Shown: piece by piece, positions 56,236-63,361 of the stretch
Position numbering within the stretch: the first letter of the stretch is position 1
How the letters are laid out: each line of letters begins with the position of its first letter
DNA from: Synergistales bacterium
GTDB lineage: Bacteria > Synergistota > Synergistia > Synergistales > JAFGMB01
Assembly (NCBI GenBank): GCA_963666205.1
Contig: OY762654.1
Span: forward strand, 2,208,001 to 2,272,000
Reading direction: 5' to 3'
Length of the DNA stretch: 64,000 bases
Notes under the pieces: model-generated
Seen by the model: the letters and a program-made list of their open reading frames with translations, nothing else
The model's database searches: none
Told to the model about the DNA's origin: nothing
Program-made: the position numbers and the translations under genes

Positions 56236-56524
56236 ATGTTCTGTTACCAGTGCGAGCAGACTGCAAAGGGCTCCAGGTGTACTTCCTGGGGTGTTTGTGG
56301 AAAAAGTGCGGAAGTTGCAGATCTTCAGGATCTTCTTATCTGTGTATGACCTGAAGGCCGGATGTATACTGCTTTCCCCGCTCTACCCGGGTATAAGAAA
56401 TATCCGTATAAATCCCACCCTCCCCGCTTTTCTCAGGCCTGAGCTGTTGAATATGTTTCAGGAAAAGCTTAACCTGATGACGGTAACGACACCAGGGGAG
56501 GGCCCTAAAACTATACTTGGATAG
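56236..56524 (+). pseudogene. hcp: hybrid cluster protein (hydroxylamine reductase) with large internal deletion
   Basis: [23 protein letters not shown]...LQDLL is joined out of frame to YDLKA..ILL....GIRNIRINPTLPAFL...ILG*. Confidence 0.9.
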
Positions 56525-56573
56525 CAAACCTTAACTGGCTTTAGTGCATTAGCCTTTGTATGGAGGTATAACC

Positions 56574-56912
56574 ATGGAAAAATATGTTTCTGATGATTCA
56601 ATTAGCGGGAAAGTACTCAGGCTTGGAGATCTAGTCCAGTACCAGCAGGATTCAGTGGTGAGCAGGGCCATCATCCAGGGAGAAAAGGGAACGGTTACGC
56701 TTTTTGCTTTCGACGAGGGGCAGTTTTTAAGTGAGCATAGCGCTCCCTTTGATGTGCTTGTCCAGGTTTTGGAGGGAGAAATGGAGATAAGAATTGGAGA
56801 AGATCCTAATAAAGTGTCTTCTGGAGAAGTCTTGATAATGCCTGCTAATATCCCTCATTCTCTTAAAGCTGTAAAAAAGGTTAAGATGAACCTCGTAATG
56901 ATAAGGTCTTGA
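56574..56912 (+). CDS. cupin domain protein
   Basis: VVSR, TLFAFDEGQ.LSEHSAP and MPANIPHSL. Confidence 0.9.
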   Translation: MEKYVSDDSISGKVLRLGDLVQYQQDSVVSRAIIQGEKGTVTLFAFDEGQFLSEHSAPFDVLVQVLEGEMEIRIGEDPNKVSSGEVLIMPANIPHSLKAVKKVKMNLVMIRS

Positions 56913-56918
56913 GATAGA

Positions 56919-56948
56919 GAAAGGCCCGGGATTCTCCCCGGGCCTTTC
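56919..56948. terminator. bidirectional terminator
   Basis: GAAAGGCCCGGG-ATTCTC-CCCGGGCCTTTC. Confidence 0.72.
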
Positions 56949-56951
56949 AAT

Positions 56952-57089
56952 TTATTTCTCCCTACGGGAGAAAAGAGTGTCGATAATGAATCAGCCAGTA
57001 CAGGCTTTTTCTGTCTTTTCTTCTTTTACGGTGTTTTCAGATTTCTCATTCAGTTTTTCGGCCGTATTTTCTTTTCTCTTCCAGAACAT
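56952..57089 (-). CDS. small protein, candidate selenoprotein (32 aa to UGA; 45 aa with Sec)
   Basis: RBS AGGAGGTG 8 nt before ATG. Reads MFWKRKENTAEKLNEKSENTVKEEKTEKACTG-UGA-FIIDTLFSRREK-TAA, with a hairpin after the UGA. Confidence 0.6.
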
Positions 57090-57104
57090 GGAGCATACAC
57101 CTCC

Positions 57105-57123
57105 TATACCTATATAGGGTATA
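57105..57123. promoter_or_regulatory. CsoR/CstR-type operator palindrome
   Basis: TATACC-TATATAG-GGTATA abutting the RBS of the small ORF. Confidence 0.55.
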
Positions 57124-57227
57124 ACAAAAATAGATAAAAATCAAGCTCTACAGATCTGCAGGATAAGGGGAGACAAGGGTAATCTTTTACGGGAGGTTAA
57201 AAATCTTTTTATAAGGGGCAGGTCAGG

Positions 57228-58010
57228 ATGGGGTCCTTTAAGCTTAATGTACTTGTAGAAATAGTGAGGAAGGCTTCTTTGATCATAACTGAACAGGGGG
57301 ACAGGTCCATAGCTAGAAGCAGGTCAAGTTCGGACTATACGACATTTACCGATTTAAAGGTAGAAAACTTTATTAAGGATAAACTTATCAAGCTTTCCCC
57401 GAAAAGCCTCATAATTGCGGAAGAATCATTTGACCCCGAAAGTGTTTGGGGTTGGGAAGATTCCGCTTTTGTCCTGGATCCGTTGGATGGGACGATAAAT
57501 TTTCATCATAACTGTAATTCATCGGCTATCTCCCTTGCCTTTTTTGAGGACGGACTTCCGCTGTATTCGGTTATTCTGGATCCATTCAGGAATGAACTGT
57601 TTGCGGCGGAGAGAGGCTGCGGTGCTACAATGAACGGAAGTAAGATCAAGGTATCAGCAGTTTCTTCCTTGAGAGACGCCCTGGTCGGTTTTGGTACAAC
57701 TCCCTATGACAAGGTCAGAGGTCTGCAAATGATCAAGGTTGCAGGGATGGTTTATTCCCGCTGCCAGGACATAAGAAGATTGGGTGCCGCAGCACTTGAT
57801 CTGGCCTATGTTGCATGTGGAAGGCTTGATTCCTTTTTCGAAATGGATCTTAAATCCTGGGATTTCTATGGAGGCCTGCTTCTTTTAACAGAAGCAGGGG
57901 GTAAGGTCTCTGACTGGAATGGGGAAAATATTGAGGGACTCGGTAAAAGAGATATTCTTGCAACCAACGGTTTGCTTCATGCGGAAATGCTGGATAGGAT
58001 ACAGATGTGA
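57228..58010 (+). CDS. inositol monophosphatase family (SuhB-like)
   Basis: AEE, LDPLDGTINF, RRLGAAALDLAYVACGR, WD and EAGG. Confidence 0.92.
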   Translation: MGSFKLNVLVEIVRKASLIITEQGDRSIARSRSSSDYTTFTDLKVENFIKDKLIKLSPKSLIIAEESFDPESVWGWEDSAFVLDPLDGTINFHHNCNSSAISLAFFEDGLPLYSVILDPFRNELFAAERGCGATMNGSKIKVSAVSSLRDALVGFGTTPYDKVRGLQMIKVAGMVYSRCQDIRRLGAAALDLAYVACGRLDSFFEMDLKSWDFYGGLLLLTEAGGKVSDWNGENIEGLGKRDILATNGLLHAEMLDRIQM

Positions 58011-62485: not shown

Positions 62486-63265
62486 TCAATTGATGGAGCA
62501 GGCCGTCATCTGAAGTGCCGGGTCCTCCATAGCTGAATAGAGGGGGCCTGCATATTCCATAGGGATTTCAGACCACAGCCGGCTAGATATCCGCGGGGGT
62601 TCCCTATCTTCAAAATGGGCAACAAGGGGGTTATCCCAAAGTCCCTTTTCGAGTATATTGTCAGCAAAAGAATCTCCATACACTATCCTGCCGATATTGA
62701 TGGCCGCATTTATGTCCCTGTCGATGATCTGGCCGGAGCTGCTAAGGTAGGATTTCCCCCTTAGATGTCCCGTGCGGGATTTTCTTCTCCATCTCTTGGT
62801 GCCGGAGTATTCTATCTCTTCCAGTGCAAGGGAGTCTATCTGACTGGTAAAAGCCTCGTCCACAAGATGAACTTCTATCCTTGCAAGGGAACATTCAAAG
62901 CGAAGGGTGTTTACAAGGTGGAGGGTAATGTTAAGGTATGGGTTATCTCTCAGGGATTTATACCTTATCTTGTAGGGGTTCTTTACAGAGCGATTCCCCA
63001 GGGCTATGGACCGGATCCCGAGGCGGAGACATTCACCTATGACATAGTGACATCTTTTTAGAAGATATGTATTTATTTCCAGGAGTTCTCCATGAATTAG
63101 ATAAGGATTTTTCTTAGCCATTGCCCGGATCTTTTTCATTTTGCCTTTTTCCAGGGTATTGGGTATCAGTATTGGTTGCTGTCCTGAAAGATTTGACACT
63201 ATTGCCAGAAGATATCTTTCACCCATATCAATGGCCATTGCATTACACTGGTTTGTTTTCTGCAT
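62486..63265 (-). CDS. TnpB-derived RuvC-domain-only protein (IS200/IS605 TnpB family, N-terminal lobe absent)
   Basis: AIDMG (RuvC-I), IALGN, VDEAFTSQ and IIDRDINAAINI (RuvC-III). RBS AAGGGGAGG precedes ATG 63265. Confidence 0.82.
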   Translation of the reverse strand: MQKTNQCNAMAIDMGERYLLAIVSNLSGQQPILIPNTLEKGKMKKIRAMAKKNPYLIHGELLEINTYLLKRCHYVIGECLRLGIRSIALGNRSVKNPYKIRYKSLRDNPYLNITLHLVNTLRFECSLARIEVHLVDEAFTSQIDSLALEEIEYSGTKRWRRKSRTGHLRGKSYLSSSGQIIDRDINAAINIGRIVYGDSFADNILEKGLWDNPLVAHFEDREPPRISSRLWSEIPMEYAGPLYSAMEDPALQMTACSIN

Positions 63266-63320
63266 TGATAATCCCTCCCCTTGATCCGTAATAAACAGTG
63301 CCTTGTGAAAGTCGCAAATC

Positions 63321-63361
63321 AAAAGAGGGCGACAATCTCTAAACAGACTGCCGCCCTCTTT
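63321..63361 (-). terminator. intrinsic terminator upstream of the TnpB-derived gene
   Basis: Minus strand AAAGAGGGCGGCAGTCT...AGATTGTCGCCCTCTTTT. Confidence 0.72.

Follow-up and report, generated by a model that had tools for sequence, protein, structure and literature searches.

VhuU, a very short Sec-bearing chain, works together with a larger methanococcal hydrogenase protein. Among bacteria, Table 1 of PMC13188914 includes several CxxU selenoproteins (SelW-like, AhpD-like, GrdA, DUF1858 and the CC/Se-motif family NF041239), which combine the CxxU motif with an in-frame UGA, a coding-region SECIS whose G-initiated loop lies 16-37 nt downstream and a presumed redox role. The bacterial SECIS rule given in that source describes a loop of 3-9 nt with G in the first two loop positions, a distance of 16-37 nt from the UGA and a stem of 4-16 bp (PMC13188914). 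It also lists small families with C-terminal Sec (UXX-star, KCU-star, the dual-CXXC small protein and the selenobacteriocin TIGR04081), which are short and are cut at the UGA by gene callers. On the regulatory side, the CstR persulfide regulons described for S. aureus, E. faecalis and S. mitis share an operator core, a repressor of the x-C-x-C type, and targets that include CoA-disulfide/persulfide reductase and rhodanese (10.1101/2021.07.25.453692; PMC11672702). Within the W-X-Y-Z scheme set out in PMC11672702, x-C-x-C marks candidate persulfide sensors.

The locus described here resembles all of these systems in part. It lies in a stretch of 64,000 nucleotides from a Synergistales genome, hereafter the window, and combines a CxxU motif, an in-frame UGA and a SECIS-like hairpin with an operator core nearly identical to that of the CstR regulons. 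Judged from its sequence and that of its relatives, the gene is real and very likely Sec-recoded, and it represents an uncatalogued, narrowly distributed family. We propose that this stand-alone gene encodes a 45-residue CxxU selenopeptide under the predicted control of a CstR-like, non-copper repressor of the CsoR family, and that the peptide likely acts as a small redox buffer in persulfide or oxidant stress; as a complete chain we regard this as possible rather than probable, and its parts differ in strength.

Gene organisation and genomic setting

An earlier sequence-only reading had claimed a ribosome-binding site, ATG 57089, C-T-G-UGA, 12 open codons, TAA, a hairpin with its loop 26 nt past the UGA and a palindrome. 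Inspection of the sequence located each of these where it had been placed, on the minus strand of the window. Read along that strand from 57123 to 56919, the order is pseudo-palindrome, Shine-Dalgarno, 32-codon frame, UGA, 12 open codons containing an 8-bp hairpin, TAA and a terminator-like repeat. The features are as follows.

57116..57144, minus strand: inferred sigma-70 promoter (-35 at 57144-57139, 17-nt spacer, weak -10 at 57121-57116 within the operator)
57105..57123, no strand: predicted CsoR/CstR-type pseudo-palindromic operator, kept in 5/5 orthologues
57098..57105, minus strand: Shine-Dalgarno AGGAGGTG, 8 nt before ATG 57089
56952..57089, minus strand: selenopeptide coding sequence, stop included (45 aa)
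57000..57002, minus strand: Cys30 codon of the CxxU motif, invariant in 5/5 orthologues
56991..56993, minus strand: in-frame UGA, predicted selenocysteine 33, TGA in 5/5 orthologues
56955..56973, minus strand: predicted SECIS hairpin, 8-bp stem with G-initiated triloop GTA at +26 to +28
56952..56954, minus strand: true stop codon, position fixed in 5/5 (TAA in 4, TAG in 1)
56919..56948, no strand: terminator-like inverted repeat common to the convergent cupin gene (terminator scan, orthologue T-runs)
56556..56912, plus strand: convergent cupin gene, context only, closing an Rrf2-ferredoxin-(hcp)-cupin cluster
57228..58010, plus strand: divergent inositol monophosphatase family gene, context only, which could share the operator

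In the peptide, residues 1-29 are charged and variable, C-T-G-U occupies positions 30-33, and the 12-residue tail is hydrophobic and conserved. The gene stands between the convergent cupin gene on one side and the divergent inositol monophosphatase gene on the other, with no same-strand gene downstream. A role as a leader peptide was ruled out, since no gene follows on the same strand. The -35 element of the inferred promoter keeps an invariant TTG in 5/5 orthologues, and a consensus promoter scan does not list the promoter. The terminator had been called bidirectional; its plus-strand direction is listed by the terminator scan, while the other direction rests on the convergent genes and on T-runs in the orthologues. 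Genome-wide there are 3488 in-frame C-x-x-TGA sites, and the selenopeptide site is one of two that pass a filter for a rule-conforming hairpin, a ribosome-binding site with ATG within 100 codons and at least five open codons.

Assembled RNA contigs, which cannot show strand, ends or level, were available from seven runs: those of X1 and X2 cover the gene plus its neighbours, those of X3, X5, X6 and X12 do not cover it, and X4 gives one contig over 56938-57088 with adapter-like ends on both sides.

Two further observations concern the surroundings. Between the ferredoxin and cupin genes, the hcp gene (window 56236-56521, plus strand) has lost its middle, with about 40 N-terminal and 80 C-terminal codons left; hcp is whole in G001, and a second hcp is found in the host genome at G000 C1:2084026-2085681. 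At window 62486-63322 (minus strand), a 278-aa ORF encodes a Cas12f1-like TNB domain (PF07282); it is syntenic in G001 and G002 and is possibly a domesticated TnpB-like gene.

Orthologues and the reading of the UGA

DNA, protein and profile searches found one syntenic orthologue in each of the five genomes from a single Synergistales family, and the orthologous loci are labelled Synergistales. The selenopeptide pattern was not found in the other 263 of the 268 Synergistota genomes searched. The family set consists of the host genome, G000, and G001-G004; these five genomes amount to about three independent lineages, so shuffle counts overstate significance. All five orthologues adjoin the inositol monophosphatase gene and four also adjoin the cupin gene, the G004 contig ending before the cupin position. 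They are 40-46 aa long, with an N-terminal part of 24-30 residues that is Lys/Glu-rich and variable in length and sequence, followed by the core K-[AP]-C-T-G-U-F-[IF]-I-D-[ST]-[IL]-x-S-R. The arrangement of C-T-G-UGA, 12 more codons and then a TAA or TAG stop is kept in 5/5.

Homologues with TAA or TAG in place of the UGA, or with no conservation beyond it, had been named in advance as signs against recoding. In fact, the codon is TGA in all five orthologues, and the sequence after it is conserved with a coding pattern. Across the 12 post-UGA codons, pS is 0.43-1.04 against a pN of 0.18-0.32 in eight between-genus pairs, with a similar direction in the eight pre-UGA codons. In the first five post-UGA codons, which precede the hairpin stem, the third position varies in 5/5 and the second in 0/5. 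The downstream stop stays in place while switching between TAA and TAG, and each of the two remaining frames on this strand is interrupted in at least 3/5 orthologues. Such a pattern is expected from protein-level selection and not from a 3′ UTR. We conclude that the UGA is very likely decoded as Sec by SelB reading the hairpin.

The competing view is that the UGA is an ordinary stop, giving a 32-aa peptide that ends in C-T-G, and that the downstream conservation reflects 3′ UTR structure. TGA is indeed a common stop in the host genome (720/1947), gene callers end the gene there, and no Cys homologue was found, which deprives the Sec call of its usual anchor. Set against this are the TGA in 5/5, the coding pattern in unpaired codons ahead of the stem, the fixed second stop and the SECIS geometry, and we consider an ordinary stop very improbable indeed.

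The machinery on which Sec decoding depends, and whose absence would have spoken against the earlier proposal, is present. The host genome (2.95 Mb, 100% complete) carries selA, selB and selD over cut-off plus tRNA-Sec (selC), its selD having an internal TGA, and it also holds two GrdA and two GrdB. Across the family, tRNA-Sec, selD with TGA, GrdA with TGA and selA are each found in 5/5 genomes. SelB is found in 4/5, the exception being G003 (86% complete), whose selA contig ends inside selA.

The predicted SECIS hairpin

In all five orthologues a hairpin with a G-initiated triloop stands at +26, the loops being GTA, GTA, GGC, GGC and GGT, and its geometry conforms to the published bacterial SECIS rule in 5/5. 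In the alignment 87.5% of cells are paired and 3/8 pairs have changed on both sides, with all slid controls lower; coming from five related sequences, these figures are not a probability. The SelD and GrdB hairpins of the same genome are also G-triloops, and the FdhA SECIS is likewise similar. As a background rate, a G-triloop stem follows 5/720 TGA-ending ORFs of at least 200 aa, and three of those five are the two GrdB copies and a formate-dehydrogenase-type gene. Under the consensus SECIS model, whose cut is -7.5 kcal/mol, 2/5 orthologue hairpins pass on a 42-nt fold and 3/5 on a 48-nt fold, compared with 3/5 of the GrdA controls. The three hairpins short of the cut reach -5.6 to -6.2 kcal/mol on the 42-nt fold, and two same-genome GrdA hairpins reach -5.2 and -5.7.

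A conserved hairpin in a stand-alone unit with its own terminator would also fit an RNA as the active product, with a stress-induced SECIS transcript soaking up SelB-tRNA-Sec or acting as an sRNA and the peptide being incidental. The covariation is compatible with such a role. However, on either side of the UGA silent substitutions leave the amino acids unchanged, Cys30 and an Arg written as CGT or AGG among them, and no Rfam match reaches the gathering score (three weak matches, all far below it), which makes an RNA product highly unlikely.

Search for relatives

None of the five orthologues matched an NCBIfam 20.0 or Pfam family at E up to 5, and there was no PDB sequence match. No entry with the selenopeptide motif context appears in the 119-family selenoprotein Table 1 of PMC13188914. 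A profile search of the 263 other Synergistota genomes returned no homologue; of 12 weak matches (E 2e-4 to 0.1), 11 were inspected and were out of pattern. A pattern allowing TGA, TGC or TGT likewise gave no homologue in those genomes, its one extra match being the end of an unrelated gene. Over the genome collection, the strict TGA pattern gave 10 matches, namely the four orthologues and six judged to be chance, and a metagenome pattern search gave two, near-identical to G002 and G004. Longer proteins (0/7991 candidates), plasmids, phages and viral contigs yielded no homologue, and no paralogue was found in the host genome.

The gene had been called unannotated. That holds for the full 45-aa form and fails for its truncated product, as the protein collection contains eight matches among 387 candidates, all called genes of 27-33 aa cut at the UGA. 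A HMMER search over 1.84 billion representatives found nothing beyond two truncated members. Among the papers listed by literature searches, none deals with the peptide or the regulon; BSepDB or paper supplements could contain the family.

A search for homologues with conservation past the UGA, or with Cys at that position, had been suggested as a check. The former is seen in 5/5; a Cys homologue aligned to the UGA was not found by any search run, the sensitivity of which is limited by the 16-residue core. Thus, the selenopeptide looks like a new orphan family on present sequence collections, with Cys forms best described as not found rather than absent.

The predicted operator and its regulon

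The palindrome before the selenopeptide gene is conserved in 5/5, and a single base separates the G003 operator from the S. mitis cst operator core as given in 10.1101/2021.07.25.453692. The sequence-only reading had assigned it to the CsoR/CstR operator type, which is borne out by a C-tract/G-tract pseudo-palindrome in the promoter of 5/5 orthologues that marks a redox regulon. Control of the divergent inositol monophosphatase gene by the same predicted operator is also conceivable.

The genome was searched with a half-site matrix whose sole training set was four selenopeptide operators. Scores of at least 18 occur at 15 positions, 11 of them intergenic, compared with 12% of the genome being intergenic. 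At a score of at least 16 there are 18 intergenic sites. Of the 17 besides that of the selenopeptide, eight precede redox-type genes, four with an in-frame UGA: a CC/Se-motif selenoprotein (NF041239), a UxxC YruB glutaredoxin, a CxxC YruB glutaredoxin, a small membrane protein with two CxxxCP motifs, a BFD-like gene with an in-frame UGA, a desulfoferrodoxin-ferritin, a CoA-disulfide reductase-rhodanese and a two-UGA rhodanese, whose site is ambiguous between divergent genes. Of the other 9/17, which count against the regulon, three are copies of a single repeat and six lie at unrelated loci. One further operator site precedes a thioredoxin reductase gene. The site recurs in relatives before the glutaredoxin (5/5), desulfoferrodoxin (4/4) and CoA-disulfide reductase-rhodanese (2/2) genes, at the 98.0-100th percentile of 2572 upstream regions. 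The copZA operon carries no operator, standing at the 69th percentile with best scores of 5.8 upstream of its lead gene and 7.7 at copZ. These sites place the selenopeptide gene in a predicted CstR-like redox regulon.

Several loci with such sites deserve separate mention. The two YruB glutaredoxin genes (G000 C1:2711598-2711834, L125:149-385; and C1:2813460-2813735) are near-identical, one UxxC and one CxxC, with the same operator before each. Both forms occur in G001 and only the Cys form was seen in G002-G004, so that they are possibly a selenium-dependent backup pair. The CC/Se-motif (NF041239) gene with its in-frame UGA lies at G000 C1:578105-578422 (L124:206-523, minus strand) and has the top-scoring operator in the spacer of a near-consensus promoter. 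At G000 C1:701226-701261, two tandem operator sites span the consensus promoter and ribosome-binding site of a 152-aa membrane protein, which carries two CxxxCP motifs, matches no NCBIfam model at 1e-8 and is also seen in G004. The thioredoxin reductase (G000 C1:288085-289272, L132:1086-2273, minus strand) has a C-terminal extension of about 90 residues showing no Cys. An operator-like site scoring 16.4 at G000 C1:2484871 lies immediately ahead of the -35 element of a region without genes, and identical intergenic copies of a matrix-scoring sequence at G000 C1:234491, 549553 and 682335 are probably a repeat or the end of a mobile element.

The probable repressor and the likely inducing signal

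The host genome has one CsoR-family gene (C1:2830910-2831224), whose product has Cys44 and Cys73 spaced 29 apart, Ser four residues before the second Cys and no His anywhere in the protein. All four CsoR-family sequences found in the family are x-C-S-C, which puts the host protein among the candidate persulfide sensors, and the position of the Asn wedge of CstR (x-C-N-C) is occupied by Ser. The marks of a copper CsoR regulon, an x-C-H-C repressor and an operator before copZA, are both missing, and copper regulation was ruled out on the Ser at the His ligand position and the copZA operon without an operator. Because the repressor lacks the Cu-binding His and copZA lacks a site, the signal is likely thiol, persulfide or oxidant stress and not copper. 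The CsoR-family protein probably binds the selenopeptide operator and is released when its Cys pair becomes oxidised or persulfidated. Counting against this, no conserved operator precedes csoR itself (32nd-97th percentile), which is located away from the regulon genes and was not found in G003 (86% complete). The peptide had earlier been described as metal- or sulfur-stress-responsive. The operator reading behind that description stands, thiol, persulfide or oxidant stress is favoured over copper, and induction itself is a prediction.

CxxC and CxxU are common metal-binding pairs, and the peptide could instead be a metal or Fe-S binder or a selenium store, with its CxxU chelating Cu, Hg, Zn or stress-released iron. 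The regulon does hold ferritin and Fe-S-type proteins, and the neighbouring cluster is Rrf2-ferredoxin-hcp. With two ligands only and no His in the peptide, no operator before copZA (69th percentile) and no Cu-binding His in the repressor, metal binding or storage appears distinctly unlikely.

A proposed mechanism

In the redox-buffer model, the repressor would sit on the operator, overlapping the -10 and abutting the ribosome-binding site, and would be released by persulfide or oxidant stress, so that a short transcript is made; SelB would then read its hairpin and insert Sec. The Cys30/Sec33 pair may react with sulfane sulfur or peroxide and so alternate between a reduced and a selenenylsulfide state, with re-reduction falling to glutaredoxins, thioredoxin reductase or CoA-disulfide reductase from the same regulon; we judge this whole cycle evenly poised. 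The charged N-terminal part would form a soluble, disordered spacer, and the hydrophobic tail may dock on a partner or on the membrane. Against the buffer model, a 45-aa peptide has no thioredoxin fold to tune the CxxU couple. A structure model from five sequences gave one long helix with a mean pLDDT of 60 and a pTM of 0.20 and is uninformative.

An alternative is a detached subunit: as with VhuU, the peptide would lend its Cys/Sec pair in trans to a single partner, bound through the tail, and that partner could be an enzyme of the regulon or the repressor. Conservation is confined to the motif and the hydrophobic pattern of the tail while the N-terminus varies, the helical hydrophobic moment of the tail is about 0.4 in 2/3 sequences tested, and the regulon thioredoxin reductase ends in an extra domain without visible Cys, all of which suit such docking. 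Nevertheless, no candidate partner gene is adjacent and the helical moment of the G000 tail is only 0.06, leaving the detached subunit unlikely, if worth bearing in mind beside the redox buffer that we prefer.

Significance and comparison with known systems

Current bacterial selenoprotein finders lean on Cys homologues, and a conserved family of 40-46 aa without detectable ones would mark a blind spot. The deep-Sep method may miss selenoproteins lacking Cys homologues, and all known selenoproteins seem to have them, according to PMC12013277. As a chemically accessible molecule, the selenopeptide would serve to model the behaviour of a bare CxxU. In addition, the shared operator offers a testable link, in five genomes of one family, by which a strict anaerobe may tie selenoprotein expression to a repressor of the persulfide/oxidant type. 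It is tempting to go further and picture a Sec-only micro-selenoprotein family that lacks both a fold and a Cys ancestor. It might have arisen de novo within a single Synergistales family and then come under a CsoR-family regulon extending over the whole genome, through which sulfur or oxygen stress would induce much of the small selenoproteome along with superoxide reductase and persulfide reductase; we consider this wider scenario doubtful.

Compared with the bacterial CxxU selenoproteins of PMC13188914 Table 1, the selenopeptide has no profile match, is only 40-46 aa long, shows no recognisable fold and no Cys homologue that we could find, and occurs in one family. The C-terminal-Sec families share its shortness and its truncation at the UGA by gene callers, but their motifs (UxxT, GxGU, CU, RxU and SGUG; PMC13188914) differ, and in the selenopeptide Sec precedes a conserved 12-residue tail. 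It also lacks a glutaredoxin fold, and no radical-SAM gene lies in the syntenic block of G000-G002. VhuU is UxxC in the same Table 1 whereas the selenopeptide is CxxU, with no sequence match between them and no hydrogenase gene near the selenopeptide. The predicted regulon is closest to the CstR persulfide regulons of S. aureus, E. faecalis and S. mitis (10.1101/2021.07.25.453692; PMC11672702), with which it shares a near-identical operator core, an x-C-x-C repressor and CoA-disulfide reductase and rhodanese targets. In contrast to the single cst operon, the Synergistales sites are scattered over the genome, the repressor has Ser instead of the Asn wedge and adjoins rpsB, and the targets include a superoxide reductase-ferritin, glutaredoxins and several selenoprotein genes.
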